From Malacoraja senta (lineage: Eukaryota), in assembly GCA_038087875.1 (NCBI GenBank), contig CM075989.1:2170001-2234000 (forward strand): DNA of 64,000 nt, read 5' to 3'. The translations under genes and the position numbers were made by a program. The notes under the pieces are model-generated. The model ran no database searches, was not told where the DNA came from, and saw only the letters and a program-made list of their open reading frames with translations. This document shows positions 1 to 60,189 of this stretch, piece by piece; position 1 is the stretch's first letter, and every line of letters begins with the position of its first letter.

Positions 1-420
1 TTCCTTTGTTTCTCTTAAAAATCTCAATGTTTCAGAAGTTTTGAGGTTTGAAAAAAGCTTAAAAAGAGCTTTTCTCTCAGTCCCACTGCTAGGCATAAAG
101 TTCCACTAGTTCCCAAATGCTGGGCAGAGAGAGCATCACCAATGCAGGATAATGGCTCTCCAGAAGTAGTCTTAGAGTAATCAATAATGTACATTTGGTT
201 AACACAAAGAACTGCAGATACCGGTTTACAAAAAAAAAACACATAGTGCTGGAGTAACTTCGGGTCAGACAGCCTCTCGAGAAGACATGGATGGGTGATG
301 TTTTGTGTCAGGACCCTTCTTTTGTGTCAGACCTATGTTTATCTGATCAGTGGAAGAGGCACACAGATAATTGACATCCAGATTGGCTGTGATAGTCTAA
401 CAAGTTGGTTTAAGTTCCAT

Positions 421-780
421 CTTGGATAGAGTGGATGTGGAGACGATGTTTCCACCAGTGGGAGAGTCTAGGACTAGAGGTCATAGCATTAGAATTAAAG
501 GGTGTTCTTTTAGGAAGGAGATGAGGAGAAATGTCTTTAGTCAGAGGGTGGCGAATCTGTGGAATTATTTGCCACTGAAGGCTGTGGAGGCCAAGTCAGT
601 GGATATTTTTAAGGCAGGGATTGATAGATTCTTGATTAGTACATGTGTCAGGGGTTATGGGGAGAAGGCAGGAGAATGGGGTTAGGAGGGAGAGATCGAT
701 CAGCCATGATTGAATGGCGGAGTAACTTTGAAGGGCCGAATGGCCTAATTCTACTCCTATCACTTATGACCTTATGACAT
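421..780 (+). mobile_element. CR1 (HER1-like) LINE 3' fragment
   Basis: ORF 422-685 carries the CR1 ORF2 C-terminus (ESRTRGHS...FSQRVANLWNYLP). It is followed by the 3' hairpin gaagggccgaatggcct and a (ttatgacc)n tail. Confidence 0.9.
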
Positions 781-1099
781 GATCTGTGTAATGTTTGAGA
801 AGGATACCATCAAACATGATTTGACATTGAGCCAGATAGAAAGATGTCAGGAAATGGCAGTAGGATTTGAAGTAGATCTTATAGGAGTAGAGGGAAGCAG
901 AGAGGTGGTTGGGGGGGGGGGGGGGGGGGGTGTATGGGAGGGTGACCTCATGTGTGAATACACATCAAATTACCTGTCAAATGCAATCAGTGCTACTAGG
1001 GTGGCCAGCACAGTAGCCAGGTTTCATGCAGCAGTGAGTTAAATGACCAGTGAGTTGCTGCTGAACATGCTGACAATGTGTAGCGAGTGTGAATGCAGA

Positions 1100-1270
1100 T
1101 ATGGGGCAGCAGTAGAGTTGCTGCCTTACAGCGCCAGAGACCTGGCTTCGATCCTGACTACAGGTGCCGTCTGTACGGAGTTTGCACGTTCTCCCCATGA
1201 CCTGCGTAGGTTTTCTCCGGGTATTCTGATTTCCTCCCACACTCCAAAGATGTACAGGTTTGTAGGTTAA
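1100..1270 (+). mobile_element. V-SINE (HE1-like) 5' part, interrupted; a SINE tail follows at about 1987-2064
   Basis: tRNA-like head with B-box-like cttcgatcc and V-domain gtttgcacgttctcccc; (ctaaa)n tail at 2031-2064. Confidence 0.85.
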
Positions 1271-1970
1271 ATGTTTAAGAAGGAACTGCAGATGCTGGAA
1301 AATCGAAGGTAGACAAAAGTGCTGGAGAAACTCAGCGGGTGCAGCAGCATCTATGGAGCGAAGGAAATAGGCAACGTTTCGGGCCGAAACCCTTCTTCAG
1401 ATTGATGTAGGGTGGGGGGGGGGGTCGGGAAGGAGAAAGGAAGAGGAGGAGCCAGAGGGCTGAGGGAGAGCTGAGAAGGGAAGGAGACAGTGAGGTCTAC
1501 CGGAAATTGGAGAAGTCAATGTTCATGCCGCTGGGGTATAAACTGCCCAAGCGAAACATGAGGTGCTGCTCCTCCAATTTCAGGTGGTCCTCACTCTGGC
1601 CATGGAGGAGGCCCAGGACAGAAAGGTCGGATTCGGAATGGGAGGGGGAGTTGAAGTGCTGGGCCACCGGGAGGTCAGGTTGGTTAATGCGGACCAAGCG
1701 GAGGTGTTGGGCGAAGCGATCGCCGAGCCTACGCTTGGTCTCACCGATGTAGATCAGCTGACATCTAGAGCAGCGGATGCAATAGATGAGGTTGGAGGAG
1801 ATGCAGGTGAACCTCTGTCGCACCTGGAAAGACTGCTTGGGTCCTTGAATGGAGTCAAGGGGGGAGGTAATGTGACAAGTGTAGCTTTACCCCCCCCCCT
1901 TGAAGAAATGCTGCACATGTCGCTCAGATGCTGCCGCACCCGCTGAGTTTCTCCAGCACCTGTTGTCTAA
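1271..1970 (-). mobile_element. Penelope-like element 3' fragment (GIY-YIG endonuclease plus pLTR with hammerhead motif)
   Basis: ORF 1497-1823 (NLIYCIRCSRCQLIYIGETKRRLGDRFAQH...GMN) is a GIY-YIG domain. The downstream terminal repeat holds a hammerhead core. Confidence 0.9.
1373..1400 (-). ncRNA. Minimal type-I hammerhead ribozyme motif
   Basis: Minus strand reads CTGAAGA AGGGTTTCGGCCC GAAACGTT: CUGAnGA and GAAA boxes, a stem II hairpin, and a palindromic ACGU stem III. Confidence 0.75.
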
Positions 1971-2412
1971 CGTCTATTGTCTATTGACGTGGACTCGGTG
2001 GGTCGAAGGGCCTGTTTCCATGCTGCATCTCTAAACTAAACTAAACTATAAACTAAACTAAACTGGGCACCACAGGCCAAGCCCACAGAGAGGGAGGCAA
2101 CGGATGGGGGCTCCAGTGAAGAAAGTAACAACAAGAAGGACACAAAGTGCTGGGGCTAATCAATGGGTTAGGTGTCATCTCTGGAGAATGGACCTTTCTT
2201 CAGTCTGAACAAGCGCCTTCAATGGAAACGGCACTGAGTTACTCCAGCACCTTGAGTCTTTTTTTGTAAACTGCCACCTGCAGTTCCACGTGTCTACAAG
2301 TAACTACAAAGTATGGGAACAGTAGGCTGGTCCCAGCATTTAAAGTTAGAGTGTGGTGTTGGCATACAGGGTACAACTATGGGATACCGGGGAATGCGGC
2401 ACAGAAAAATAC

Positions 2413-2885
2413 TTTAGAGATACAGCATGGAAACAGGCCCTACTGCCCACCGAGCCCACATCAACAGACAAAGACAATAGACAATAGGAGGAGAAGTAGG
2501 CCATTCGGCCCTTCGAGCCAGCACTACCATTCAATGTGATTGTGGCTGATCATCCACAATCAGTACCCCGTTCCTGCCTTCTCCCCATATCCCCTGACTC
2601 CGCTATCTTTAAGAGCTCTATCTAACTCTCTCTTGAAAGTATCGACCAGCGATCCCCGCACATTAACTCTATCCTACACACTAGGGAGATTTTACAATTT
2701 TACCGAAGCCAATTAGCCTACAAACCTAGATACGTCTTTGGAGTGTGGGAGGAAATGGGAACACCCGGAGAAAACCCACGCGGTCACAGGGAGAACGTAC
2801 AAACTCCATACAGACGGCACGCATAGTCAGGATCAAACCCGGGTCTCTAGCACTGTACGGCTGCAACTCTAACGCTGTGCCACCG
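2413..2885 (-). mobile_element. V-SINE with nested CR1 3' end (about 2462-2643)
   Basis: SINE head at 2885 and tail at 2413. A CR1 3' UTR with a (gacaata)n tail is inserted in the SINE tail region. Confidence 0.85.
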
Positions 2886-3604: not shown

Positions 3605-4050
3605 CCTTCTCCCCGTGACCTGCGTGGGGTTTCTCCGGGATCTTTAGTTTCCTCCCACATTCCACGTGTACATCGCCGTACAGGTTTGTGGGTTAATTGG
3701 CTTGGAACAAAATGTACAAATTGTCCCCAGTGTGTGTAGGATAGTGTTAAGAGCCTGTCCCACTTTCACGACCTAATTCACGACCTTTTTTACTCGTGGA
3801 CATTTTTCATCAGTTGAAGAAAGGCCCCGACCTACTTGATGCCACGAGTACCTACGACTAGCATCACGACCTACCTACGACTTCGTGACGACCATGCTGC
3901 GAGTGTGAGTCAAGGGCAAACTCGGCAGAGGTCGTGAATTAGGTCGTTAAAGTGCGACAGGCCCTTTAACGTGTGGGGATCGCTGGTCGGCACAGACTCG
4001 ATGGGCCGAATGGCCTTTTTCCACGCTGCATCTCTGAACTAAACTAAACA
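3605..4050 (+). mobile_element. V-SINE (5' truncated) carrying a MITE insertion
   Basis: V-domain and (ctaaa)n tail; split at gtgTTAacgtg by a MITE. Confidence 0.85.
3750..3965. mobile_element. PIF/Harbinger-like MITE (subfamily A)
   Basis: TIRs agagcctgtcccactttcacgacctaattcacgacct / aggtcgtgaattaggtcgttaaagtgcgacaggccct; TTA target-site duplication (3747-3749, 3966-3968) inside a SINE. Confidence 0.85.
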
Positions 4051-4051
4051 G

Positions 4052-4325
4052 CTTTGAGGTGAGAGGGGCCAAGTGCAAAGGGGATGTCCAGAGCAACTCA
4101 TAAACACAGAGAGTGGTGGGTGTCTGGAACATGCTGCCAGGGGTAGTGGTGGAGGCAGATACGATAGTGGTGTTTAAGAGACTTTGAATAGGCACATGGA
4201 TATGCTGGCAATGGAGGCATGTGGATTGTGTGCAGGCAGATAAGAGTTGGTCTTGGCATCATGTTCGGCACGGACATTGTGGGCCGAAGGGCCTGTTCCT
4301 GTGCTGTACTGTTCCATGCTCTATT
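4052..4325 (+). mobile_element. CR1 3' fragment (older family)
   Basis: cacagagagtggtgggtgtctggaac motif and 3' gggccgaagggcctgttcctgtgctgta. Confidence 0.8.
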
Positions 4326-4807
4326 CCTCAACCAACAGGCAGACTGCTCTTGATAATTGTATCTAACACATCGCTGTAACCTCTCAGAAGGAAACATTCC
4401 TATTATTCAGTAATAATAGAATCATTCTATTATTACCGTAATGTGGTGCGATTTTCGAATGCCTCTCTCTGAGAATGACTGCTAACAACAAGTAAATTAT
4501 CCACTCATGCCTTGGGCTGAAGAAGGAGCAGGTTTGCAATGTTATGTCTCTTGAAGACGAAGCCCAACATGATCATTCCAAGCCAACCAATTTCTAGCAC
4601 TCTGCTGTGCCTGGCTCGGTAGACTAACACAAAGGTTAACACCAACGAAGAAGGAATACCCAAGGATTGTCTTTGATAAAATAAATGTAAGCGTGACACT
4701 CATACCAGGAATCAGTGTCCACGCCAAGTTTATGTTTGTTGATGTGTGACATCAAATAACATGCCAGAGCCCATACGTCGATATACCAAAGGGCTCATGG
4801 AACTAGA

Positions 4808-5065
4808 ACATAGAAGATAGAACAGGAACAGGCCCTTTGGCCACAATATCTGTGCTCAACGTAATGCCAAGGCCATCATTTATCTGCCTGCACATAAGCC
4901 ATATATCTCCATTCCCTGCATATCCATGCGCCAAACCAAAAGTCTTTAAAATGCAACTAACGTATCAGCTTCAAACGCCACTGCTGGCAGCGTGTTCCAG
5001 GCACCCATCACCCTCTGTGTAAAAAAACTTGCCCCGTACATCTCCTTTAAATGTTTCCCCCCTCA
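4808..5065 (-). mobile_element. CR1 3' fragment
   Basis: Reverse complement of the same CR1 3' end. Confidence 0.75.
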
Positions 5066-5945
5066 AGACCATCTTACTGATCAAGGATATCCCTAATTTC
5101 AAAAACCCGTGAGAAAACAGAATACAGTATTTTAGTAACATTAATTTGTGTTTTCATTTCAATCAATTCCCGTTGAAAACAAATTCACAAATTCACAAAG
5201 CTTGCTCAGACCAAACCTCCACAACTTGGAAGAGACTGAGAGATGTGGACAACAAAATAACAGAAAGATTATCCCTGCCACGTTTATAATGATTGAGGTC
5301 AACTGCATAGGCCATTCAAGCTAATATGTTGATGATGTCCACATTAAACCTGGTCCCCCCCTTCAGCTCTCAATTCTTAGCCTTGCAGCAACGTTTTACA
5401 AGATGCCTTGTCAATGTCATGGGTTCCTTCCCCCACCTTGTCAGCCCCAAAATGACCACAAAAAAACTCATCTAATTCTAGCTTCAGTTACTCCAAGCTA
5501 ACACAAGATACACTGGATATTTTAACAAGTAATTATTGTTTCAAATATTTAAGGGCCAGAAGCCAATATCAATCAATAACGAAGGCAGGAGCAGGAACCG
5601 AGCCAACAGCAACGCTGGCAATGATTAGCAGAAGTACTGAACAGTCAGCATGAAACAAAAAGCAACACTCACACTGCAAACTGCATCATTAACTACTCTT
5701 ACACACCATACACCACTGGGTTAACCCTTTCAATAACACAGCAACCGCAAGGCAGGTCTTCACTGCAAACCACTCTCTATACAAGTCATCACATTGAACA
5801 TCCAATGCTCAATGGATGAACGAATTATCAATTATAATCCTGAAACTTCTCCTTTGCGTTCCATCTGATGAGTTGTACAACTGTCCTCTTATCTCCTCTG
5901 ACATCCGATCTGCATCTTCCCACCTCATAATTCTCTTCTGAAGGA

Positions 5946-6040
5946 GTCTGAAGAAGGGTTCTGACATGAAACGTCACCTATTCCTTTTCTCCCAGATGCT
6001 GTCTGACCCGCTGAGTTACTCCAGCTTTTTGTGTCTATCA
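5946..6040 (+). repeat. Short Penelope-pLTR-derived repeat with hammerhead motif (5948-5975)
   Basis: ctgaagaagggttctgacatgaaacgtcacctattcc...gatgctgtctgacccgctgagttactccagc. Confidence 0.75.
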
Positions 6041-6379
6041 GCATAATTCTCTTCAATGGTTGACCCTGTACCAGCATAGTTGCTGCTATCTCTCCCCACC
6101 CGTACCATGTCTTATTTCCATATTCCACTCTTCCTGGTGCTCTGCTCTCTTCCATTCTCCCCACTCACTTGAGCTCACTTGAGTTCATCCCAACTCTTAG
6201 AACCCACATACCATCTTGCATTAGCTCCTATCGATTCCTACTCCAGCTACAGGTCAGCTTATTGTTTCAGAGTCCACATTTGTGTGTCCCTTTCAATCTC
6301 TCCAATCCTCAAACCCTCTGAAGCTTCTGTGGGATTTTAACTCTGGCCTTCTGTGACCACCCAACCTCACTGGTGACTC

Positions 6380-6688: not shown

Positions 6689-6799
6689 TCTCCACTATTT
6701 GAACCCCACACTGTGGTTGCCCTCAGGCTCCAGAATTCCTTCCTTAGACCCCTTCACATCTTCACCTTCCTATTCAAGTTTAAAATGCTTCTTAATTAG

Positions 6800-20610: not shown

Positions 20611-20924
20611 TTTCCATGTGATTTTGGAATTGAATTCACAATTCCCTTTAATTAAGATTTCCTACTTCGTTGTTGACCTATTAGTTCCACAATGCCTTTG
20701 TTTGGTTTGTTAATAGGCTGTGGTGCATATTCACTTCATTGGCAGCCACTCTCGCTCTCTCTGCTACTTCATCAGTTCACATTCCCAAAACATCTGCCAA
20801 GCAAAAGAATCAAGAATCCAGAGGCACAAGACCAAGTCGAACTAATGGCAAAAGCTGCAATAATATAAAGGCTGTGAATGTCAATGGGTGGTATGAGAAG
20901 AAATCAGACAATCGAATAAATCGC

Positions 20925-21540
20925 CAAGACCAAGCGTAGACTGGGAAAACGTTTTTCTGAAGATCTGCACTCAATCCGCTTGGCGTACGTGATCTCTCGG
21001 TTGCCAAACACTTTAATTCCCCTTCCCATTCCCACACTGACCTTTCTGTCCTGGGCCTCCTCCACTGTCAGAGTGAGGCCCAATGCAAATTGAAGGAACA
21101 GCACCTCATATTTTGCTTAGGCAGCTTACACCCCAGCGGTATGAATGTTGATTTCTCTAACTCCAATTAACCTCTGCATCCCCTCTCTCTCCGTCTCTCC
21201 CCCACCCTAATCATTGTACTAAATCCACTGTCATCTTGCTGAGTTTCATTTTCTGTACAACTCATTATCACCTAGCCCACAGCCAACAATGCACCATTGT
21301 GGGCTCCACCTTTCCTTGATCATTGTTACATTTTTACATGTCTTTCATTCATTTGTTCCATATCTCTCTATATCACTGTCTATATCTCTCATTTCCCTTC
21401 CCCCTGACTCTCAGTCTGAACAAGGGTCTCGACCCAAAACGTCACCTCTTCTTTCTCTCCAGAGATGCTGCCTGAACCGCCGAGTTACTCCAACTTTTTG
21501 TGTCTATCTTCAATTTAAACCAGCACCTGCAGTTCCTACC
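20925..21540 (+). mobile_element. Penelope-like 3' fragment (degraded GIY-YIG end plus pLTR)
   Basis: agaccaagcgtagactggg...ggaacagcacctcatatt...ggtatgaat, then a pLTR with a mutated hammerhead at 21416-21443. Confidence 0.8.
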
Positions 21541-22521: not shown

Positions 22522-22659
22522 TTACCCTCTGGGTCAGACTGAAGGACGAAAACACTCAGCCATTGATAACATTATTTATATTCAAGCAACCAATACATAA
22601 AGTAATTGTGCAACATAACAAAGAAATGTATTTTCGGGTCAGGACTCTTCTTCAGGGGT

Positions 22660-22687
22660 CTGAAGAAGGGTCCCAACCCGAAACGTC
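22660..22687 (+). ncRNA. Minimal type-I hammerhead ribozyme motif
   Basis: CTGAAGA AGGGTCCCAACCC GAAACGTC; an inverted, degenerate partner lies immediately upstream (22630-22654). Confidence 0.7.
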
Positions 22688-22889
22688 AACACTCCATGTT
22701 CTCCAGGGATGCTGCCTGACCCACTGAGTTACTCCAGCACTATGTGTCTTGTAACAAAAATCAGCATCTACGGTTTCTTGCTTCTACTTTCTTGTAGATG
22801 CATTATCTTGGATGTTTCCTTACATTGGCCCAATATCCCTGATGGCATGAGGCTATGAACAGTTTTGTAACATTGTAATTAATTTTGTA

Positions 22890-25808: not shown

Positions 25809-26297
25809 TCTCCACAATGGCTGCCTGACCTGGTGAATATTTCCAGTGCTTCAGATTCACAACTGTATTTAATATGTGTACACATTTTTTTGGGGGGGAA
25901 TATTGGGCTTACGGATGGCAAATGATAAGTTCCCATCTACAACAGAGACAAGAATTAATAACTGCACAATGTCAACAGATGCATATTTCATGGGAGCAAG
26001 CTGATATTAATGTTTTGCAGACATATATTTAGTTTTAAAGTGTAGTTACAAATGCAAGAATGTCATCTTCTTCAATAATTAAATACCACTAAAAACCATA
26101 AGGAAAGATTGCGTTTAATGGATCCGGAGCCAGTGAAGTCTCACTGTCTCAGTGGGAACTGCATAAAGCAATAATAATTCTCAGCGATCAAATTAAGCAC
26201 ATTGTGAGCTTCAATTACTAGTATTCATTTAACATGCACGGTAAACATTGTGCACAATACTTCAGCAGCAATTCACAGAACACAACAGAAGAAGGAG

Positions 26298-26555
26298 GAT
26301 AGGCACACAATGCTGGAGTAACTCAGCGAGACAGGCAGCATCTCTGGATAGAAGGAATGGGTGACATTTTGGGTCGTGACCCTTCATCAGACTGGGGAGA
26401 AAGGTCTCGACCCGAAGACTCAGCCTGAAGAAGGGTCACGACCCGAAATGTCACCTATTCCTTCTCTCCGGAGATGCTGCCGGTCCGGCTGAGTTACTCC
26501 AGCATTTTGTGTCTATCTTCGGTTTAAACCAGCATCTGCAGTTCCTTCCTGCACA
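26298..26555. repeat. Fold-back inverted pair of Penelope-pLTR-derived repeats with hammerhead motifs
   Basis: Arms of about 90 bp (26300-26390 and 26425-26515) are reverse complements of each other. Confidence 0.85.
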
Positions 26556-27794: not shown

Positions 27795-29050
27795 TTCTTA
27801 GAGGAGGCTCTCACCAGGGTCTCCTCTAAATCCCGTAGCTCCGCTCTCATTCCCCATCCCCCCACTCGTAACAAGGGCAGAGTCCCCCTTGTCCTCACCT
27901 TCCACCCTACCAGCCATCACATACAACAAATAATCCTCCGACATTTTCGCCACCTCCAACGGGATCCCACCACAGGCCACATCTTCCCATCTCCTCCCCT
28001 TTCGGCTTTCCGCAGAGACCGCTCCCTCTGTAACTCCCTGGTCAATTCGTCCCTTCCCACCCAAACCATCCCCTCCCCAGGTACCTTCCCTTGCATCCGC
28101 AGGAAATGCTACACTTGTCGCTTTACCTCCCCTCTTGACTCCATCCAAGGACCCAAACAGTCTTTCCAGGTGCGGCAGAGGTTGACCTGCACCTCCTCCA
28201 ACCTCATCTATTGCATCCACTCCTCTAGGTGTCAGCTGCTCTACATCGGTGAGACCAAGCACAGGCTTGGCGATCGCTTCGCCCAACACTTCCGCTCAGT
28301 TCGCATTAACCAACCTGATCTCCTGGTGGCTCAGCACTTCAACTCCCCCTCCCATTCTGAATCCGACCTTTCTGTCCTGGACCTCCTCCATGGCAAGAGA
28401 ATTGGAGGAGCAGCACCTCATATTTCGCTTGGGTAGTTTACACCCCAGCGGTATGAACATTGACTTCTCCAATTTCAGGTAGTCCTTGCTTTTCTCTCCT
28501 TCTCCTCCCCTTCCCAGCTCACCCACAGCCTACTGTCTCCGCCTCTTCCTTTCTTCTTCCCGCCTCCCCCCCCCCACCACATCCATCTGAAGAAGGGTCT
28601 CGACCCAAAACATCACCTATTCCTTCGCTCCAGAAATGCTGCCTCACCCGCTGAGTTTCTCCACATTTTTGTCTACCTTCTTTTCTTTGGAACTTACTCT
28701 TCCACATGAAACCCATAGGAAGGAAAACGTGGATATAGAATATAGTATAGTAATGCAAATTGGAGGAACAGCATCTCATATTTCGCTTGGGCAGCTTACA
28801 GACCAATGGTATGAATATTGATTCCTCTCACTTCAGGTAACCCCGGCATTCCCTCTCTCTCTATCCCTCCCCCACCCAAGTCGCACCAGCTTCTCGTTTC
28901 ACCCAACAAACAGCTAACAATGGCCTGTTTCCTTTATCTTTCATTCATTGTTCTTTAACTCTCCACATCATCGTCTGTATCTCTCGTTTCCCTTATCCCG
29001 AACCAGTCTGAAGAAGGGTCTCGACTCGAAACATCACACATTCCTTCTCT
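27795..29050 (+). mobile_element. Penelope-like element fragment (linker with Cys cluster, GIY-YIG, pLTR), followed by a second pLTR fragment (28750-29050)
   Basis: Plus frame reads RVPLVLTFHP...GTFPCIRRKCYTC...NLIYCIHSSRCQLLYIGETKHRLGDRF; hammerhead motifs at 28587 (mutated) and 29008-29035. Confidence 0.9.
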
Positions 29051-31107: not shown

Positions 31108-31492
31108 CAATGTAGGAAGGAACTGTAGATGCTGGTTTACTCTGAAGATAGACACAAAAAGCTGGAGTAACTCAGCGGGTCAAGCAGCGTCTCTGGAGAA
31201 AATAGGTGATGTTTCGGGTCGAGACCCTTCTTCAGTCTGAGAGTCCCACAGGGGAGAGGGAAAGGAGAGATATAGACGGTGATGTCGAGAGATGTAGAAC
31301 AAATGAATGAAAGATATTGGAGAACAACAAACTAGAGGTATGAAAAGGTACAGAGGAAATCAGAGCCGGCTCCAATGACTCAGGAAAGGTGGAGCCCACA
31401 ATGGTCCATTGTTGGCTGTGGAAGAGGTGATAATGAAGTGATACAAACAGTGAAACTACCGAGACAACTAGGGTAGGGGAGGGATGGAGAGG
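31108..31492 (-). mobile_element. Penelope pLTR-derived repeat with hammerhead motif (31208-31235)
   Basis: Minus strand CTGAAGAAGGGTCTCGACCCGAAACATC; same family as 21170-21540. Confidence 0.8.
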
Positions 31493-34902: not shown

Positions 34903-35300
34903 TAATAGGAGCTGCAGATGCTGGTTTAAACCAAAGATAGACACAAAAAGTTGGAGTTACTCAACGGGTCAGGCAGCATCTCTGGAGGGAAGGAATAGAT
35001 GATGTTTCGGGTCAGGACCATTCTTCAGACGTAGGGAAAGGGAAATGAGAGATATCTCGGTGATATAGAGAGATAGAGAACAAATGAATGAAAGTTATGC
35101 AAAACGTAACGATGATCAAGGAAATGTGGGGCCCACAATGGTCCATTGTTGGCTGTGGTGATAATGAGTTACACAGACAGTGAAACTCAACAGGACGACA
35201 GTGAAACTAGTACAACTAGACTGGGGGAGGGACGGAGAGAGAGGGGATGCAAGGGTTACTTGAAGTTAGAGAAATCAATATTCTTACCGCTGGGTTGTAA
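34903..35300 (-). mobile_element. Penelope pLTR-derived repeat with hammerhead motif (35001-35028)
   Basis: Same family as 31108-31492; extends to the GIY-YIG C-terminal end. Confidence 0.8.
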
Positions 35301-35544
35301 GATACCCTCATAATATACCTCTGCTCAATCTCCATTCTAATCCTCTTTCAGATTGTTCTTACAAACTATTATTCCTCAAGGGATTAAATAGTTCGAAACT
35401 TTGTGTGCTGAGAGTTACAGAAAGTGTCACCGAATTAAAAGGATAAAGTGTGCAAATAATCTTGTGTTCGTTCTCACATTGCACAAGTTCCACACCAACA
35501 TCTTCCTTCAATAAGACAATATTCATTGGCAACCTTTGCCAGTG

Positions 35545-37955: not shown

Positions 37956-38069
37956 AAAAGCTTTTGTTACGTGCTAACAAGTCGTAAAAGAGGAATCATG
38001 TTTGCAATGGAGCCATTCACAGTGTACAAATACATGATAAGGGAATAATGTTTAGTGCAAGATAAAGTC

Positions 38070-39015
38070 AGTGTGAAGAAGGGTCTCGACCCGAAACACC
38101 ACCCATTCCTTCTCTCTAGAGATGCTGCCTGTCCCGCTGAGTTACTCCAGCATTTTGTGTCTACCTTCGAGTTAAACCAGCATCTTCAGTTCTTTCCTAC
38201 ACTTAAAGCCAGTAAAGTTTGATCAAGGATAGTCTGAGGGTCACCAATGAGGTAGGCAGTAGTTCAGGACTGTTCTCCAGTTGTTGGTAGGATGCCTGAT
38301 AACTGCTAGGAAGAAACTGTTCCTGGAGCCCATCCTACATTGTACACACCTCATTTAATCCCCTATTACAGCTCAACTAAAAGCTGGACTTTGACCCCCC
38401 CCCCCCCCCCCCCACCCCCTGCCCCACCCCAACCAAGAATGTCCAAATATTAACCTTAATAACCTCAAGAATAGTTCCGCAAAACTTAACACCATTTCCT
38501 CCATGTTTCCTTCCATTGTTTAATTCCCAAGGTGTCTAGTCCCAAGAAACAACTCCGATCCCATTTGACCATTTTCATCCATCCCTCCCTCTTATCTCTG
38601 CTCCCAACTAAATCCATCGCATGGATGGATCCACCTGACGCAGGGTCTTGATCCAAAACGTCACCCATTCCTTTTCTCTCGAGATGCTGCCTGATTTGCT
38701 GAGTTACTCCAGTTGAGTTTCCCCACCTGTATAACGTGTTATCACCCAGCCCACAGCCAACATGGACAGTCGTGAGATAAGCCTTTCCTTGATCATCGCT
38801 ACTTTTTGCATAGCTTTCATTCATTTGTTCTATATCTCTGTATATCACCGTCTATATCTCTCATTTCCTTTTCCCCTGACTCTCAGTGTGAAGAAGGGTC
38901 GCGACCCGAAACTTCACCTATCCCTTTACTCCAGAGACGCTGCCTGATCTAGTGAGTTACTCCAGCTTTTCGTGTCTATCTTCGGTTTAAACCAGCATCC
39001 GCAGTTCCTTCCGAC
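38070..39015 (+). repeat. Three Penelope pLTR-derived repeats (38070-38202, 38635-38712, 38725-39015)
   Basis: gaagaagggtctcgacccgaaac and gatgctgcctg..gctgagttactccag motifs; the hammerhead cores are mutated. Confidence 0.7.
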
Positions 39016-40676: not shown

Positions 40677-42887
40677 TACCTGTTGCATGTACCTGCAGGC
40701 TCTCAGGCGCTGAGGCAGCAGTTGTACCACGATGCAGCATGGAAGGGATTGGGGGCATCACAATTTGTTATTTCAAGAGCAGAGCTTCTACTCCTTCCTC
40801 TATCCCCGCACCTGTGCACAACATTATAAATAAACTCCCCAGGGTCCAGAAAGAAAATAGAAGCAATATCACGGGGAGGAGAATAAGATCAGCTGTCAAG
40901 AGATAGCTTTTCACAGGTTATCAATCAATATCAGTTTAATTCGTCACTTGCACATAAAGTGCAAGTGAAATGAATTTGTCAGCAACGGTACAATGAAAAA
41001 CACACAAAAACACAATAAAAATAGGAGTAGAATTAGGCCATTCGGCCCATCGAGTCTACTCTGCAATTCAATCATGGCTGATCTCTGCCTCCTGATCTAA
41101 TTTTCCTGCCTTCACCCCATAACCCTCGACACCCGATCTAATCAAGAAGTTATAACATTTTGAGATACTTTATGAAGATGGAGATGGAGGGGAAAGATAA
41201 CTAATCGTGGAGCATGGGCTCCAGGCTTGAGAGAACATGGTCATCAATGGAGCAAAGGGGATATACGAGAGACAGGGTGGAGCAAGAGAAACAGAGAGCT
41301 TGACATGGCGGAGGTGGTTACAGAATGGAATGGCATCGATTGTCCAGTAAGGTATCCTGGACCAGAACCTCATGGTCGTACATTGTGTTAGAAACAACCC
41401 TTGCAGGGCACTTCAAGCTTTGTCTTTAACAGTGTAGAGCCATACTGCGCATGTCCAGAAGGGGCCGCTTTTGATGTTACAAAATGTTTTAAAAAATCAT
41501 TTTATACCCTTTCATCAAAGCGTTTGAATGACACAACTCCAAGAGCTGTCATTAATTCCAATCTTGTCCAAAGCAAATGTAATGATCTACAGGAGAATGG
41601 ACAGTAAATTGTAGTGGTGGGTGATGGCTTTATGTGAAGCAACCTTCTGATTCTGACTGAAATGAAAGCTTGTTATTGCCACTTTCATTTAAAAAGCAAA
41701 ACTAGGCATAATTAAGAGACGCTCTGGCCATGTAGCTCTGGAGTTTGCTTTCTTCCAACGTAGCAAATGTGATTATAGATAACGAGGTGATCACAATTAC
41801 CAATTGATCTTCCATGTTGGTGCTTCAGGCAACACAACCACAGTGTGTGAGGAGATGAGAGAGTTTTACTCTCCGCACAAGCTGGCAGCTCACTGATAGA
41901 AAGTCGTGTGGTACAGAGATGGGGTGTGAAGGGAATCTTGGGGAAGGATGGTGGTGGAGGAGAGGTGAGCAAGCTGAGAGATCAGAAGGACAGCGAGCGG
42001 GGACATTCTTAAAACTAGTACAAGGACAGGTCGGCACGGTGGCACACCAGCAGTGCCGGCGACACTGTAGGTGACGATTCGGGTCGAGACCCTTCTTCAG
42101 ACTGATCCACAGACTGGTGACTGTGGATGGATAGTGTTAGCATTCATTGGTACATGATGTCCATGACTGACCTTTCAACTACACAGATGCTCACTCTGCC
42201 ATTCCAAGTGGAATGATTTAAAAAAATGATTTAAACAGTTCAAACAGGGAAGAAAATTCATTGAACCTGACTTCCGGCACAGTACAAACCTGAATGGAAA
42301 CGTGGCTAAAATAAAAAACCATGTTCTTGCATTGTGGAAGTTAATGTGCAAAGTTACTGATCAAACCTGCTCCTCATCATGTGTCCAGTTTGCAATAGAA
42401 GTTATATTGAAGAGTTCAACTCAGCAATTTTGAGATTGCTGCTGCCATCACCCTTCTCACCACCCCTGACGAAAGATGTGCAGGACCGATAAAAAGCATA
42501 ATTGGTCTGCTCCACATACGCCTGATAGAAAGAGATGATACCAATCACCAATCTTATTGTGAAGAATTCCAAGGTAGCAAACTACACTCCAATCATGAAG
42601 GAATGATCATGTTCTCTGAAGATGAGATGCCATCTACTTTGGTCATTGAATCAAGTAAAATGACAATAGCAATCTCCATTGTTTCATCAGTACTACCTGT
42701 TGATCTGAACTACTTCAGTTGACCATGTTTCAGCATGAGGCTGCAGAATCCAAGCAAGGAAATCATCCCTTAAATCGCAACAATGGACAATGGTGTCTTC
42801 TTCACGTTCCAAACCCCCAGCCCATTGCCCTGCACAGCAACGTTGCAACAACCCATAACTGAAGCCTTCCCCATTGTCATCACTCAC

Positions 42888-42990
42888 CCTTCATTCCATA
42901 CTTGGATCGGCGTCCATATTTGTTGAACATGATGAAGAGGATGAGCAGGAGGAAGCAGCCAAAGGCAGCCAGTCCAACAGCGATCGAGAC
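42888..42990 (-). CDS. NTRK3: Neurotrophin receptor tyrosine kinase (TrkC) transmembrane exon, 103 bp, phase 0 to phase 1
   Basis: Minus strand reads ctctgatgctctgtattgctccgcccacag|GTCTCGATC...ATGAAGG|gtgagt and translates to VSIAVGLAAFGCFLLLILFIMFNKYGRRSKYGMK(G). This closely matches TrkC as I recall it (VSIAVGLAAFACVLLVVLFVMINKYGRRSKFGMKG), with the same exon length and phase. Not present in the ORF track. Confidence 0.93.
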
Positions 42991-47359: not shown

Positions 47360-47915
47360 CAGCTGGGATAGCAGCTGCCTCACAGCACCAGAGACCACGG
47401 TTCGATCCTGACCTTGGGTGATGGCTAGTTTAGTTTTTAGTTTAGAGATACAGCGTGGGAACAGGCTCTTCGACACACTGAGACTGCGCCGGCCAGCGAT
47501 CCCCGCGCGCTAACACTATCTTGCACACAATAGAGACAATTTACACATGCACCAAGCCAATTAACCTACAAACCTGTACGTCTTTGGAGTGTGGGAGGAA
47601 ACCGAAGATCTCGGATAAAACTCACGCAGGTCACGGGGAGAACGTAAAACTCCGTACAGACAGCGCCCATGGTCAGGATCGAACCCGGGTCTCCGGAGCT
47701 GCAAGCGCTGTAAGGCAGCAACTCTACTGCTGCGCCAATGTGCTACCCATGTCGGTCTGGAGTTTGCTCGTTCTCCCTGTGACCATGAGGGATTTCTCCC
47801 ACATCCCCAAGGCCTGTGGGTTTGTAGGTTAATTAGCCTCTGAAAATTGTCCCCAGTGTGTAGGGAGTGGATGAAAAAGTGGGGTAACATAGAACTAGTG
47901 TGAGTGGGTGACTGT
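47360..47915. mobile_element. Nested V-SINEs (minus copy 47427-47748 inside a plus copy)
   Basis: Plus head at 47360-47425 resumes at about 47750. Confidence 0.8.
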
Positions 47916-47944
47916 GATTGTGAGGGCTGATTTTCTGTGATCTA

Positions 47945-49066
47945 TGGGGGAGATCTGTGTTGTTGCGGAGTGAGTCGATGGCAGTGCGTTCAGGGGGGGA
48001 GAGATTGGAGTGAGACAGGGGAGTGGAGAAGTTGAGGCAGTTGATGTCACGGCGGCAGTTTTTGATAAAGAGTTCTAAAGCCGGAAGGCCACGAGGGGGG
48101 TTCCACGAGGAGGGGGTGCGTTGGAGACGGGAAAAGGGGTCATCAGTGGGGGGGCGAGGACTCCTTACCATGGAAGTGCGCTGTGAGGCGGAGGCGATGG
48201 TAGAAGCGTTCCAAGTCATGGAGGGCGCGGAACTCATTGAGGTGGGGACGGAGGGGGACAAAGGTAAGACCTCTGCTGAGGACAGACCGTTCGATGTCGG
48301 AGAGGGGGAGGTCGGGGGGATGGTGAACACCCGGCGGGGATGGGGGTTGGGGCCGGAGGAAGGCAGGTGGGTGGAATGGGGATGAGGCAACGTGTGGTGG
48401 GGGGGTGGTGGGTGGTGGGGGGGTGGTGGGTGTTCAGGGGGTGGGGGGGGTGAGAGGGCTGTAGTGTGGGTGGGGAAGAGAAGGCAACCGCAAGAGATGC
48501 AACACTTGTCCCTTCACCTCCCCCCTCGACTCCATTCAAGGAACCAAGCAGTCGTTCCAGGTGCGACAGAGGTTCACCTGCATCTCCTCCAACCTCATCT
48601 ATTGCATCCATTGCTCTAGATGCCAGCTGATCTACATCGGTGAGACCAAGCGGAGGCTTGGCGATCGTTTCGCCGAACACCTCCGTTCGGTCCGCATTAA
48701 CCAACCTGATCTCCCTGTGGCTCAGCACTTCAACTCCCCCTCCCATTCCGTATCCGACCGAGACTCTGGTCCTGGGTCTCCTCCATGGCCAGAGCGAACA
48801 ACACCGGAAATTGGAGGAAATGCACCTCATATTCCGCTTGGGGAGTCTGCATCCTGGGGGCATGAACATTGAATTCTCCCAATTTTGCTAGCCCTTGCTG
48901 TCTCCTCCCCTTCCTCAGCCCTCCGGCTCCTCCTCCGCCTTTTCCCTTTCTTCTCCCCACCCCCCATCAGTCTGAAGAAGGGTTTCGGCCCGAAACGTTG
49001 CCTATTTCCTTCGCTCCATAAATGCTGCTGCACCCGCTGAGTTTCTCCAGCATTTTTGTGTACCTT
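47945..49066. mobile_element. Penelope-like element with inverted structure: N-terminal ORF fragment on minus (47945-48390), GIY-YIG plus pLTR on plus (48480-49066)
   Basis: Minus: ERSVLSRGLTFVP..FYHRLRL..SSWNPP..NLSPPERTAIDSLRNNTDL. Plus: ORF 48561-48872 (NLIYCIHCSRCQLIYIGETKRRLGDRFAEH). Confidence 0.88.
48972..48999 (+). ncRNA. Minimal type-I hammerhead ribozyme motif in Penelope pLTR
   Basis: CTGAAGA AGGGTTTCGGCCC GAAACGTT; core identical to 1373-1400. Confidence 0.75.
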
Positions 49067-49477
49067 CTTAAAAACTCTTTGATGAGATGATGTTTCGGGT
49101 CAGCATCCTTCTTTAGACTGAAGATAGACATGAAATGCTGGAGTAACTCAGTGTGACAGTCAGAAGAAGGGTCTCGACCCGTAACCACCACTGTGTTGTT
49201 CCAGCATTTTGTGTCTATCTTCGGAGTAAACCAGTTCCTTTTTACACACCACTGTTTAGACTGTTGTCTGACGAACCTTCAAACCAAATGTTTTTCTGGA
49301 TTTCTGCGAAGCATTTGGTCCATTACTATTTTGGTGGACTGTCTTCAAAGTGGCAAGCATGGAATAGAAGGACAGGTACAGAAGTGGATTGGCAATTGGC
49401 TGCTTTAAAGGAAATGAGGTGGTCATATGTTGACTTGCACATCAATCCCGGGGCCTGCCCATGCATGTTGCTTGTCA

Positions 49478-54396: not shown

Positions 54397-54629
54397 GGCG
54401 ACCAGAAAAAGATACGACTCTTGGGGCGACTACCCACGACCATACAGGTGTCACCCCGTAAGATGTCGGCACGTGACGCCTGCGTGGTCGTGAGTTGTCG
54501 CCCACAAAGTCGTACCTTCTTCTGGTCGGCGCTGGATTTTCAACATGTTGAACATTTTCGGCCACCTGCTGTGACTATGACGGGGTGCCGGCAAGTCGCT
54601 GAAAACATCGCGTATGTGGGACGGGCCCT
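54397..54629. mobile_element. PIF/Harbinger-like MITE (subfamily B), left end lost
   Basis: Internal sequence matches 15258-15587; ends gtgggacgggccct followed by tta. Confidence 0.8.
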
Positions 54630-54910
54630 TTAGTGTGTGCAACATGCAGCTGAAAGGAAAGAGTTTTAATTCTGAGGTAATGGCACAAGTATTGTGACAG
54701 CTGCTTAATGTAGACATTTGAATAAAGAGCATATGGCAGCCAAGGTAAATGAGGTTTATCCGTGGAGCGGAGGAGACTGGGGGAGGGCAGGTGGTGTCGG
54801 CAACAACCAAGGCACAACCTGAGAGAGCGCAGGTTATGAACGATCGATAGACACAAAAAGCTGGAGTAACTCAGCGGGACAGGCAGCATCTCTGGAGAGA
54901 AGGAATGGGT

Positions 54911-54938
54911 GACGTTTCGGGTCAAGACCCTTCTTCAG
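54911..54938 (-). ncRNA. Minimal type-I hammerhead ribozyme motif
   Basis: Minus strand CTGAAGA AGGGTCTTGACCC GAAACGTC within pLTR-derived repeat 54846-54943. Confidence 0.75.
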
Positions 54939-55102
54939 ACTGATTATAAACTCCTGTAGGACTCCTATAAACGTTCCTTAGGTCAGCGACGCATGATGGG
55001 GAACATCACAGGGAAGTTGGCAAGAGAGGAACGTCCCAAACAACGGTCGCAGATGAGGTAAATGGCCTGGGGAACGTGGGGGGGGGGGGGGGGGGGGGGG
55101 CC

Positions 55103-55360
55103 TCAATGAAACCTACCGAACAGTGAAAGACCTAGATAGAGTGAATGTGGAGAGGATGTTTCCACTAGTGGGCGAACCTAGGACCAGAGGTCATAGCCTC
55201 AGAATAAAAGGATATTCCTCTAGATATTCCTCAGTGGATGATTGACAGATTCTTGATTAATACGGGTGAGTGGGAAAGATGGGTCGGCCATGATTGAATG
55301 GTGTAGTACACTTGATGGGCTGAATTGCCTAATTTAGCTCTTAGATCTAATGAACTTATG
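55103..55360 (+). mobile_element. CR1 3' fragment
   Basis: gatgtttccactagtggg..aggaccagaggtcatagcctcagaat. Confidence 0.75.
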
Positions 55361-55428
55361 AAGGCGCAGACAGCATTGAACTGACAGGATGTCAACTCAA
55401 ACACAACGCTGCAACGGCTGTGAGGTAT

Positions 55429-55863
55429 AGGGCCTGTCCCACCAGCATGCGACTGCATGCAGCAAGGGTGACCAAACCGGAAGCGGGGGCCGCGCGGAGA
55501 TCGAGTGATCCCCGTACAGGGCCGGTCCCACGAGCATGCGACTGCATGCGGCGAGCGCGACCAAACCGGAAGCGGGGGCCGCGCGGAGGTTGAGTGAGTG
55601 ACGTGAAGTTCGAGCGAAGTCCGCGGGAAGTTCGCGCGTGACGTACGGCGTCGAGGCGGCTGCGGGCCGGCAGGCCGTTGCCGCGCGGAATTTTTGAACA
55701 GTGTCAGTTTTTCGGAGCCACGCGTGATGTCGGGACCAGCTCCGCACAACTCCATACGGCTCCGGCGATCGAAGTGGGACCGGCCCCGCGAGGCCGTATG
55801 GCTCAAGCGACCACGTTAGGTCGTGCTTGCTGCATGCAGTCGCATGCTTGTGGGACAGGTCCT
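55429..55863. mobile_element. PIF/Harbinger-like MITE (subfamily E), very CpG-rich, duplicated left end
   Basis: TIR agggcctgtcccaccagcatgcgactgcatgcagcaag / cttgctgcatgcagtcgcatgcttgtgggacaggtcct; a second left end starts at 55518. Confidence 0.85.
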
Positions 55864-56336
55864 TTAGTCTAGTCCCCTTCACCCAACTGTGAAGGAGCTT
55901 GTTGGCAGACGGGCACGAGAATGGGAGCAAGAGTATGGTGTTACAATCACACAGAGATGTCAGCCAGACCAGTGTCTCGGGGGACAAATCCAATATTGTT
56001 AGATTCATAAGCTGTTTCTCCCTGTAGGTCATTTTGGAAAATGACTGCAGTTTGATATTACCACGGCAAATCTCTCCATGTGTACTGGCTCCTTCTGGCA
56101 GACAGATGAAAACTCCATAGCAAGCGGAACCTCGGGGCACAAGATGATAATATCAAAGGATAGCAATCTGTTCAGGGAACAGATCTGACTGCTCAGCACT
56201 CATTAAAACTGGATTCACTGTAGAGGGGGGTGAAAGAAATCATCTCCCTTCATCAGATTGTGTCATTCCATGAGTGACGTTACTGCAGCAATGGTGTAAT
56301 TACCAGGAGGATGGGAAGACTTGCTCGGGTGAGAAT

Positions 56337-56536
56337 NNNNNNNNNNNNNNNNNNNNNNNNNNNNNNNNNNNNNNNNNNNNNNNNNNNNNNNNNNNNNNNN
56401 NNNNNNNNNNNNNNNNNNNNNNNNNNNNNNNNNNNNNNNNNNNNNNNNNNNNNNNNNNNNNNNNNNNNNNNNNNNNNNNNNNNNNNNNNNNNNNNNNNNN
56501 NNNNNNNNNNNNNNNNNNNNNNNNNNNNNNNNNNNN
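56337..56536. other. Assembly gap (200 N)
   Basis: Run of exactly 200 N, probably a fixed-size placeholder. Confidence 0.99.
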
Positions 56537-56643
56537 ATGAAGGCTAAATACATTGACACATCTATTTATTACCTTACATTCTATGTTGGTCATTCCCCCC
56601 CCCCACACTTCCCCAGTATATTAGCCAGATTATAACCTGCTCA

Positions 56644-56822
56644 TGTGCAGGAAGGAACTGCAGATGCTGGTTTAAACCAAAGATAGACACATAATGCTGG
56701 AGTAACTCAGCAGGACAGGCAGCATCTCTGGACAGAAGGAATGGGTGACGTTTCGGGTTGAGATCCTTCTTCAGATTGAAGAAGGGTTTCGACCCGAAAC
56801 GTCACCCAGCATTTTGTGTATA
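56644..56822. repeat. Penelope pLTR-derived repeat with inverted hammerhead pair (minus 56747-56774, plus 56776-56803)
   Basis: gacgtttcgggttgagatccttcttcag-a-ttgaagaagggtttcgacccgaaacgtc. Confidence 0.8.
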
Positions 56823-57279
56823 ACCTTCCTTATAATTCTCAAAATTCCCAACAACATCCAGTAAAACATGAGTTCCCATGCGATGGATATAACGTGATGG
56901 ATAGAATAGAGAATGTATTCGTACTATGCAGGGTGTATTAGTTTGTAACAGGATTTGTTCAGGAACTACACACCCATTAAAAACTTACTTTGGAATTTGG
57001 CAAGCAGATAAAAGCTATCTTGGAAAAAGAAGTTTGCATGTAACCTCCTGGCAGAACTATCTGTAAAAATGCCACTGGATGTAGATGGTTCCATCTGACC
57101 AAGACACAGAGAGGTTTGATCGAACAACCTCTCTCAGTCTTATTTCTACACCATGATGCTGTGGCTTGGAACACAGAACAACGTGGAAAGTAACTCACTG
57201 GAGCATGCCCCTTATTAACATCACCTCCTTCAAAGCACACGCCAGGCACACACATGCTCAGCAATAAATAGGCACTCAC

Positions 57280-57303
57280 CATAAAAGGGATTCTCCAGAA
57301 TTT
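57280..57303 (-). CDS. NTRK3: 24-bp juxtamembrane microexon of TrkC (phase 1-1), encodes (E)ILENPFY
   Basis: ccttttgatttgtttcctctgcag|AAATTCTGGAGAATCCCTTTTATG|gtgagt: strong acceptor and donor, exactly 24 nt, upstream of the TM exon. Mammalian NTRK3 has a 24-nt alternatively spliced exon (ESTDNFIL) at this position. Confidence 0.75.
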
Positions 57304-57626
57304 CTGCAGAGGAAACAAATCAAAAGGAAATTTTTTAGTTTGAAAGAAACAGACTGGGTGATTCAATTTGTGGATCGATCCCTGATGGAACGGTCCATTG
57401 GAGCTGCAACTGGTCACGTCATCAGCACAGCCTGAAGGAGTGTCCCGAACTGAAACATGACCCATCCATGCCCTCCAGAGATGCTCCCTGACCCGCAGAG
57501 TCACTCCAGTACTTTGCGGGTTTTTCTGCAAGGCAGTAACTCTACTGCCGTGCCATCGTGTTGCCAAACTCTTCTGAGATCTGATGAAAGGCTGTTAACT
57601 CTGCCTGGATCATTCCTGTCTCCAAC

Positions 57627-57927
57627 TTAGTTTAGTTTAGCTTAGAGATACAGCGCGGAAACAGGCCATTTGGCCAGCTGAGTCTGCACCCACCAGCGAT
57701 CCCCGCACACTAACACTATCCTACATACACAAGGGACAAGTTACATTTATACCAAGCCAATTAACCTGCAAACCTGTACGTCTTTGGAGTGCGGGAGGAG
57801 ACCGAACATCTCAGAGAAATCCCACGCGGGTCATGGGGATAACGTACAAACTCCATACAGACAGCACCGGTAGTCAGGATCGACCTGGGTCTCTGGCGCT
57901 GCAAGGCAGCAACTCTACCGCTGCGCC
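57627..57927 (-). mobile_element. V-SINE
   Basis: (tttag)n tail, V-domain and head. Confidence 0.9.
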
Positions 57928-58234
57928 CAACTCTTCTGACATCTGATGAAAGGCTGTTAACTCTGCCGGGATCATTCCTAACCTGCTAAATATTTCCAGC
58001 ATTTTCAGGTGGTTTCATTTCGATTGCTGTATTTGACGAGTGTTGCCTTGCCATCAGCACCTCTATTTCACCAGGAAGACTCCATCTCATGAACTACAAT
58101 CTATCCCACATGGTCCACAGTGATGTCTCTGGGCTCTGTAGATTTTCCCTGATACCTCAGCCTCTCTCTTCATATAGAAACCATCTTTATGTAACAACAT
58201 GTCGAGTATACAGTCAGAAGTGGAACTCAGTGTC

Positions 58235-58500
58235 TAAACCTTTTTTTCCCAGGATGGAAATGTCAATTGCTAGAGAGCATGACATTAATGTTAGAGCAGG
58301 GATGTGGAAATATGTGGAAGAAGCCATTTCCACAGAGGGTGGTGTGTGCCTGGAACGCGCGGGCAGGGGTAGTGGTGGAGACAGATACAACAGTGGCATT
58401 TAAGGGGCTCTTGGATAGGCACGTGGATATGGAGAGAATCGAGGGTTGAGATACAGGCAGATCCGAGTTGTTCTTGCACAGACATTGTGCCCTTCACCGT
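58235..58500 (+). mobile_element. Old CR1 3' fragment
   Basis: ORF 58267-58449 (PQRVVCAWNA..FKGLLDRH). Confidence 0.7.
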
Positions 58501-59004
58501 TCTATTTAAACAAAATTTAAAAATGAGGCTAATATTCAGCTTTTCTAGAACAGGGGATGATCACAAAGAATAAAAGCTCATTTGTAATTTTGACCAGGAC
58601 TTAGCTGAGAAAAAAAGATACCTTCTAATCTTCCATAGAGATTTCATGAACTGCACATACTTGAACACTCATCAATTTACATTCTTGTTACCCAGTCAAA
58701 TTTTTCAGTAGCACACCATTAATCCAGCCTAATCCCTTTCACAATAATCGTTGCTGAAAGGATTCTCACGCACTTTATTTGTGAGAATTATATTGACTGC
58801 CTCAGTCACGTCTCTGAACTAATTAATTCACCTCCATTGTCAGTCCAACACTTCGTTAGTATACTGTACTCAGTTGATTTTTAGCAAGATTTTATCGAGA
58901 ATAAATGTTCCTTTTCTACAAATAGGAACCCTGAACCACGTGTTCAGGTCAATAACATTCCTACCGTTAATCCATATCTTTAGCGCCAAAGACGACAGCC
59001 TTAC

Positions 59005-59315
59005 TAGTTTTAGTTTTAGAGATACAGCGAGGAAGCAGGCCATTTTTGGCCCACCGAGTCCGCGCCGACCAGCAATCCCTGTACACTAGTGCTATCCTAC
59101 ACACTAGGGACAATTTACAATCTTTACCGAAGCCAATTAACTACAAATCTGTACGTCTTTGGAGTGTGGGAGGAAACCGGAGTACCCGGAGAAAACCCAC
59201 ACAGTCACGGGGAGAATGTACAAACTCCACACAGACAGCATCCATGGTCAGGATCGAACCCGGTTCTCTGGCACTGTAAGGCAGCAACTTTACTGCTGAG
59301 CCACAGTGCTGCCCC
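59005..59315 (-). mobile_element. V-SINE
   Basis: Family motifs. Confidence 0.88.
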
Positions 59316-60189
59316 AAGGCCAGCTAAAGCCATGTGTTATTGGAACATTTGCAACAAGAGCGGAGGGCATCCTTCAAAATTCTCACAGTTTTCAACATTT
59401 GTCCCCTCTTTTAGCTTTGTATAATCCTTGTCAATTTTACCTGCAACTCTGAGTATGATATTTAAATGCTGACATGTAATTGTAATTAATTTTAATTTTA
59501 CCTCCTTTAGCTTTGATAGCTATTATTATCACACCCCAAAGATGCTGAAGGGGAACATCAGTTTGAAGCACAGGTCACAACTATGATCTGTTTGGGTCAA
59601 TATAATAGTGAGCAAATTTCCTAAAGTTAGTTCATGTTCCACATCAAGGACGGTAACTGCCCTGTGTGGAGGAAGGAACTGCAGATACTGGTTTACACTG
59701 CAGATAGACACAAAAAGCTGGAGTAACTCAGCGGGACAGGCAGCTCTCTGGAGAGAAGGGATGGGTGACATGTCTGGTTGAGACCTTTCTTCAGACCAGG
59801 GTCTCGACCCGAAATATCACCAGAGATATTTGTAACTCAGCTTGTCCTGCTTGTTTATAGACAGTTCAATGATTCATACGTACGTGAGGATATTTTAGTG
59901 TGAATAAGTGTGTCAGTGAGAGTTGGTGTGTCAATGAAGGTGGGTGTATGGTGAGGATGGGTGTTCCTGGTGAGCGGGGTCAAGCCCTCTACTAGGCCCA
60001 GCTCGCCCACCATAGACGCTGACTGGACTCACACAGCGAGAGCAAGGAAGTACTCGCAAGCAACTGCCAAGAGCATGGTGGGCCATCAGAGAGTGAGGAA
60101 GGTCGCCTGAAATCGAGGGGACCATCATCCAGCAAGGGGTCCATCGAGATAAGAGAGGATAATTTGGGATAGGAGTTGCTGGCATTTGG

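Follow-up and report, generated by a model that had tools for sequence, protein, structure and literature searches.

Hammerhead-bearing repeats in a TrkC-type gene of Malacoraja senta: probable terminal modules of Penelope-like retrotransposons with a preferred 5' end

The stretch of DNA considered here, which I call the window, comprises 64,000 nucleotides of the Malacoraja senta genome (G000:C13:2170001-2234000). It lies within a minus-strand gene for a Trk receptor, and scattered along both of its strands, from 206 to 61519, are short repeats carrying a minimal hammerhead ribozyme, likely the pseudo-long-terminal-repeat (pLTR) module of Penelope-like elements (PLEs). An upstream exon of the gene best matches the NT-3 receptor TrkC (E 2.5e-13, versus 1.7e-3 for TrkA). 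The sole Trk exon found in the window is the transmembrane exon at 42886..42990 (-) (TrkA_TMD, E 5e-4), and the remainder was treated as intron. Other exons of the gene lie 48-58 kb and 20 kb past the window's end and 108 kb before its start. A motif search for the second Ig-domain exon was negative. There is a 200-base assembly gap at 56337-56536, and that exon and the short juxtamembrane exons, all of which should precede the transmembrane exon, may lie in the gap or may have diverged.

A sequence-only reading of the window had counted about 30 hammerhead motifs. The 30-mer that it used has 12 matches with at most 3 mismatches (0 in 100 shuffles), and 32 sites lie within 9 mismatches of some window copy (0.0 in 10 Markov shuffles). 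A profile hidden Markov model, trained on copies from the window and the rest of the genome, finds 49 fragments of the module, 25 minus and 24 plus, 28 of which span the catalytic core, so the count holds up. By arrangement, 24 are head-to-head, 22 solo and 3 tail-to-tail; none of the 49 has a direct (tandem) neighbor. A core was called intact if its catalytic boxes, palindromic tetramer and stem II all passed, and about 5 cores in the window qualify. The same reading had named five. Four of these pass, at 1373-1400(-), 22660-22687(+), 48972-48999(+) and 54911-54938(-), and the reading was right that the hammerhead is type I and minimal and has a palindromic tetramer; the fifth, at 56747-56774(-), keeps its boxes and has a mismatch in stem II. 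A core at 5948(+) also passed the filter, yet has a gap in stem II. The motifs called near-intact at 26425, 29008, 31208 and 35001 are present, and in all four the tetramer is broken at its CpG. The GIY-YIG open reading frames (ORFs) at 1497-1886(-) and 27717-28436(+) both lie 5' of a motif, as had been said. No Rfam family reached its gathering score anywhere in the window, and in 48000-60000 a search relaxed to E 10 gave no match to its hammerhead families. The minimal form lies outside Rfam's coverage, so both results are uninformative either way.

The repeats differ in how much they retain. Three are 5'-truncated PLEs. One, at 1265..1891 (-), consists of the GIY-YIG C-terminus, the 3' untranslated region (UTR), the intact core at 1373-1400 with a GUU triplet, and a tail; another, at 20916..21540 (+), has about 450 nt upstream of a decayed core; and the third, at 27799..28685 (+), runs from a linker through GIY-YIG and 3' UTR to a decayed core at 28587. 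Others begin in or at the 3' UTR: 28752..29050 (+), shortened at its 3' end, with the near-intact core at 29008; 31111..31317 (-), a stub with a near-intact core (31208-31235) and a tail; and 34907..35307 (-), which runs from the ORF end to a decayed core (35001-35028) and a tail. An insertion of the youngest subfamily at 47836..49067 places an inverted mid-ORF piece (47836-48513, minus) beside endonuclease (EN) sequence, 3' UTR and the intact core 48972-48999(+). Solo short copies are found at 5945..6039 (+), starting at -3 with a 13-bp target-site duplication (TSD); at 38068..38202 (+), from -5 through the tail end; and at 54846..54943 (-), 1% diverged, in TrkC-sense orientation, with the intact core 54911-54938. 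Head-to-head pairs occupy 22632..22775 (intact core 22660-22687 in the plus arm), 26295..26555 (both arms beginning at the hammerhead's 5' edge, one of them tailed), 56641..56808 (with a predicted hairpin in which the inverted arm ties up the sense core 56747-56774) and 59665..59821 (core decayed). Positions within the module are numbered from the C of CUGA as 0, which puts the predicted cleavage between +27 and +28.

PLE ends have been known since 2014 to carry minimal hammerheads, mostly dispersed as single motifs that truncated elements left behind (PMC4209133; this and the other papers cited here are drawn on as far as their available text goes). The motifs here share with those of metazoan PLEs the CUGAnGA and GAAA boxes, a NUH triplet, the extra nucleotide after position 9, the G10.1-C11.1 pair of stem II, the palindromic 15.2-16.2 tetramer, presence in both pLTRs, and dispersal as thousands of single motifs linked to truncated elements. 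The published stem II has 7-8 bp; here it has 4 bp and a tetraloop, and stem I has only about 2 bp. Cartilaginous fish do not figure in the available text of that survey.

The parent element can be identified. The GIY-YIG fragment of the window has 83,622 first-look candidates in the genome, and walking 5' from candidates reached intact elements. One of them, L133, has a single ORF of 1212 amino acids (P0001) that combines reverse transcriptase (RT) with a C-terminal GIY-YIG domain (RVT_1, E 7e-6; GIY-YIG, E 1.5e-3; neither reaches Pfam's curated cut-off). By eye, three cysteines form a linker motif before the EN domain, a motif common to Neptune and Nematis (PMC8557442). The hammerhead module stands before the ORF of L133 and again about 120 nt past its stop, and L133-L137 and L139 all have it on both sides, the pLTR-ORF-pLTR layout. 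The Penelope origin proposed earlier is thus confirmed, since autonomous PLEs of this genome carry the same module. Many near-identical elements (L133:2165-5839 and L134-L150) have open frames of 1190-1300 codons, and the youngest subfamily, with 6504 exact 38-base cores, looks, to judge by these sequences, recently or still active.

Two further observations concern these elements. A short upstream ORF starts at +49, ahead of the main ATG at about +161. In this region (L133:2039-2210) there is a second pyrimidine tract, AG-ended at about +47, followed by the ATG of the upstream ORF, which has 41 codons, and the sequence that overlaps the main ATG, AG|GTATG, looks like a splice donor; a 5' intron or translational control is possible, as are cryptic acceptors for host genes. 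A single 5'-truncated copy with a 430-codon frame recurs in L006, L011, L012 and dozens of unplaced contigs with identical flanks, and is therefore part of a larger amplified unit.

Short copies belong with long ones. I compared ends against six references, which have the hammerhead module in common and differ in their 3' UTRs: a consensus end for each of five subfamilies, and the young L137 type. The majority sequences of the subfamilies all pass the hammerhead test, as do 65 of 546 random fragments. Between subfamilies the only changes seen in the hammerhead are one-sided (U-A to U-G in both stems, and C17 to U17), with no double compensation. EN coding sequence lies within 900 nt upstream in just 48 of 763 fragments, in accord with the earlier statement that most copies are non-coding, and all six groups are represented among the 48; in group 5 the three EN matches are probably neighbors, and by eye one copy has the ORF's last codons. 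At nine diagnostic sites, the only ones compared, the top three haplotypes among 142 short copies (46, 11 and 9) are the same as those that top 62 long copies (16, 6 and 5).

The 3' ends of copies are bimodal, at about +91..+98 or +127..+132, that is, with or without a tail of about 37 nt. An optional tail of 30-40 bp is a PLE signature (PMC11167929, PMC8557442), traced to two internal RT start sites (PMC11167929). The tail is as common in short copies with the preferred 5' end described below (25/87) as in long ones (26/83, p 0.74).

It is the 5' ends that are unexpected. They were read from the 648 of 763 fragments with a complete 3' part and away from stretch edges: 277 solo, 266 head-to-head, and 105 of other neighbor classes, which were excluded. 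All-against-all BLAST lengths were not used, as they are inflated by inverted arms and adjoining LINEs. For subfamilies 3 and 5 the references measure only 86 and 119 nt; the spikes at -86 and -119 are therefore artefacts, and the lengths of 'long' copies in these two are lower bounds. Among the solo copies, 87 start within the nine positions -6..+2 (9.7 per nt), 26-fold the density just upstream, where 20 start at -60..-7 (0.37 per nt). Another 88 start at +3..+56 (1.6 per nt) and 63 beyond -60. There is no peak at the cleavage site: 8 of the 277 ends fall within 2 nt of it (1.6 per nt). The ends of short copies are therefore not simply random, as the sequence-only reading had held. The upstream flank is shared in just 3 of the 87 peak copies, so the peak is not an artefact of missing upstream references; the flanks are unique. 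Exact TSDs of 7-17 bp bound 22 of the 87, compared with 0 of 87 when flanks are swapped. The youngest subfamily behaves in the same way: of the first 30 copies listed on C1 (among which two pairs are each a single insertion), the start lies at -5..-1 in 10 and further upstream in 20, and -45..-6 is empty. L218, L241 and several solo copies carry, directly ahead of the 5' junction, a repeat of a few bases from their own +2..+10 sequence, which suggests that RT slipped back onto the same RNA after -2. A literature search for a fixed 5' end of PLE stubs found no description; supplements, Repbase and subscription papers were outside its reach.

Paired copies and copies that continue into the ORF show the same stop. 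Neighbors within 150 bp, among the 763 fragments, are head-to-head in 155 cases, tail-to-tail in 38 and direct in 75, and 97 of the 266 head-to-head arms begin within those nine positions. An inverted 5' copy is a standard feature of PLEs (PMC8557442, PMC3846280), and the elements here have the full set of EN-bearing PLE traits: partial-tandem pLTR, inverted 5' copy, optional tail and TSD. An exact pLTR-ORF junction occurs at 338 places. Twenty non-array places were picked from these in list order on C1; 6 start at -8..+2 (4 of them at inverted junctions), none at -94..-9, 4 at +25..+83 and 10 at -95 or beyond. Since the stop is found also in ORF-bearing copies, it is a property of the template, which argues against separate short masters. 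As a separate matter, one head-to-head pair sits inside a GC-rich element and has been amplified with it (L064, L086 and C13 neighbors of the window, several copies with the same 300-550-bp flanks).

What lies at the stop? The sequence TCAGT at -5..-1 is identical in all six references despite their differing upstream UTRs, and its TCA is dispensable for stem I. TCAGT resembles an initiator. The hammerhead's ACGT would sit 27-30 nt past a start at -3. In a rotifer PLE, TCACT has been cited as initiator-like (PMC3846280), and in Penelope of D. virilis the promoter is internal and its downstream element includes ACGT (PMC2377424).

I propose the following course of events. The element's protein would nick DNA and start reverse transcription internally, at +94 or +131; an internal start has been demonstrated in vitro for an anole element (PMC11167929). 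RT would then copy uncleaved RNA through the hammerhead to the RNA's 5' end, which I infer to lie near -3. The resulting cDNA could join the target by microhomology, giving a short copy; or pair with a second cDNA, giving a head-to-head pair; or transfer to the 3' repeat and continue into the ORF, giving long and partial-tandem copies. The hammerhead would be maintained in master elements and would likely decay neutrally after insertion. Taken as a whole, with its mechanism, the account is likely: the window's repeats represent the terminal module of EN-bearing PLEs that have intact copies in the genome, this pLTR module being a minimal hammerhead followed by some 65 nt and an optional tail, and the short ones are likely dead by-products of insertion. 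That short copies are by-products of autonomous PLEs is very likely. That the 5'-end peak comes from run-off at the RNA's 5' end is an evenly balanced call, and that it arises from something other than run-off or a roadblock is unlikely. The boldest form of the proposal falls short of an even chance and is offered tentatively: PLEs may make a retrovirus-like strong-stop cDNA, with a start 94 or 131 nt into the mRNA, run-off at the hammerhead's 5' edge and a jump to the 3' repeat needed to reach the ORF. The stubs would then be fossils of failed jumps, and the hammerhead sequence would double as a core promoter, initiator plus downstream element.

Several points weigh against this account. An exact TSD was not found in 65 of the 87 peak copies. 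Ten of the 20 ORF-start copies reach past -94, so a transfer step or a read-through RNA must be added. The start near -3 is itself deduced, and a test for a cap signature gave a G before the junction in 15 of 35 cases versus 11.1 expected (p 0.11). In D. virilis, the Penelope hammerhead lies at the 3' end of an intron (PMC4209133), and that intron, 75 nt in length, begins 46 nt past the start site (PMC2377424), which puts the start there about 120 nt upstream of the hammerhead. As to decay after insertion, non-CpG core positions are diverged in 115 of 2546 cases (4.5%) versus 1191 of 14449 (8.2%) downstream. I ascribe the difference to constraint on master elements and to subfamily-diagnostic sites downstream, because downstream sites that do not vary between subfamilies (block +48..+56) show 4-7%; weak selection after insertion is possible. 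In favor of neutral decay, 63 of 254 copies have lost the essential G12, which is part of a CpG, a rate like that of other CpG sites (15-24%; 258 copies spanning -2..+88). Finally, the comparison of strands given below covers a single gene.

An alternative view keeps the PLE origin and explains the peak by a roadblock. RT coming from the 3' repeat would stall at the YAG and polypyrimidine tract 5' of the hammerhead, either a 3' splice-site-like signal bound by a splicing factor or C tracts that are hard to copy. A pyrimidine tract ending in CAG at -4..-2 is indeed present in every subfamily, the D. virilis intron has its 3' end where helix I begins on the 5' side (PMC4209133), and ORF-start copies show the stop too, as expected of a feature of the template. 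Against it, ends inside the tract are nearly absent (the 0.37 per nt noted above). No shared upstream exon is joined at -1, given how few peak copies share an upstream flank, and the re-copied first bases before -2 suggest slippage at a template's end. I regard the roadblock as possible and somewhat unlikely. The related idea of a spliced template is rejected, there being no shared upstream exon.

One might suppose instead, as the sequence-only reading did, that the short copies form a non-autonomous family of their own, SINE-like or retrozyme-like, propagated from short masters and mobilized in trans. Their 5' and 3' ends are fixed and they have TSDs of their own, most lack coding sequence, and elsewhere in the genome pLTRs have given rise to tandem arrays with intact cores. 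In one of these (G000:C1:28902275-28907175, L258-L270), at least 13 units repeat with a 384-bp period, each made of 3' UTR, an intact young hammerhead core, a tail and about 100 nt of the ORF's start; it is closer to a tandem retrozyme-like layout than any window copy. Other pLTR-derived arrays have periods of 138, 165, 254 and 275 bp. Non-LTR retrozymes are likewise PLE-related and non-coding and have a type I hammerhead, and they form head-to-tail tandems that give circular RNAs (PMC7229834, bioRxiv 10.64898/2026.07.22.740005). In contrast, the window's copies are solo or head-to-head, with no tandem of hammerhead units, and are not bounded by the cleavage site. Nor do they form a lineage distinct from the autonomous partners: the main haplotypes are common to short and long copies, and the 5' peak appears in every subfamily, the youngest included, and in copies that continue into the ORF. 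A separate family is accordingly improbable.

The host gene seems to have little to do with the matter. In 120 evenly spaced 10-kb stretches of contigs C1-C14 (1,197,800 bases) there are 546 fragments, 0.46 per kb, from which roughly 9e5 may be extrapolated genome-wide, in keeping with the high copy number claimed; 4,000-9,000 were counted by another method in coelacanth and Xenopus (PMC4209133). The stretches hold 0-29 fragments each, and 25 of the 120 hold at least 8, so the window's 7.7 per 10 kb is within the genome-wide range. In the 229 kb of the TrkC gene that were examined, sense and antisense are balanced: 95 and 88 fragments (p 0.66), 29 and 23 with intact boxes (p 0.49), 11 and 14 with fully intact cores (p 0.69). 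The depletion of intact sense cores that had been suggested as a check is absent from this stretch. The repeats are indeed embedded in a TrkC-type gene, with one exon in the window, and the evidence does not support any special tie between the hammerhead copies and TrkC. The window also holds ORF fragments of non-LTR RTs at 8717-9661(-), 51824-52975(-) and 62222-63045(+), presumably CR1-like, the first two with RVT_1 matches.

The earlier suggestion that sense copies dimerize in the TrkC pre-mRNA, cut the intron and so affect the gene can be set aside as extremely unlikely: there are fully intact sense cores (two in the window, 11 in the 229 kb) and schistosome dimers and trimers cleave weakly in vitro (PMC4209133), but the strands show no bias, the 4-bp helix formed by the palindromic tetramers is worth -3.1 kcal/mol, a modeled dimer of the nearest sense cores (54938 and 56774) reaches -6.0 versus -11.3 for two monomer folds, sense-antisense duplexes within the pre-mRNA are far stronger (-64 to -185 kcal/mol), core 56774 is predicted to be tied up in its hairpin, and the anole PLE hammerhead required the element's protein for cleavage, and RNA-seq showed no ends at its site (PMC11167929). 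Predicted minimum-free-energy folds of the monomer are not hammerheads, and 1 of 9 Xenopus dimers cleaved (bioRxiv 10.64898/2026.07.22.740005). On these models the hammerhead normally would not cut TrkC pre-mRNA.

The elements have close counterparts among known PLEs. With the Neptune/Nematis type (Craig et al. 2021, PMC8557442) they share RT followed by C-terminal GIY-YIG, the Cys-rich linker, 5' truncation, partial tandems, an adjoining inverted copy and the 30-40-bp tail; placement with Neptune or Nematis is by the linker motif, and the sharp 5' stop at the hammerhead's edge is found here and not in the available text of that paper. With Poseidon PAc of Anolis (Frangieh et al. 2024, PMC11167929) they share a hammerhead at the pLTR-ORF junction, two 3' ends that define a tail, both strands extended and an uncleaved RNA template; the ORF of PAc begins inside the hammerhead, in contrast to the main and upstream ATGs here.

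The ribozyme, then, is ordinary, and the value of these repeats is in the ends of the copies. The PLE transposition cycle is still termed undefined (PMC8557442). If the strong-stop model is true, it would bring pLTRs, partial tandems and tails under one scheme. Malacoraja senta has an intact element that looks active, young copies identical to one another by the thousand, and a 5' stop that is sharp, and so would make strong-stop synthesis and strand transfer directly testable.

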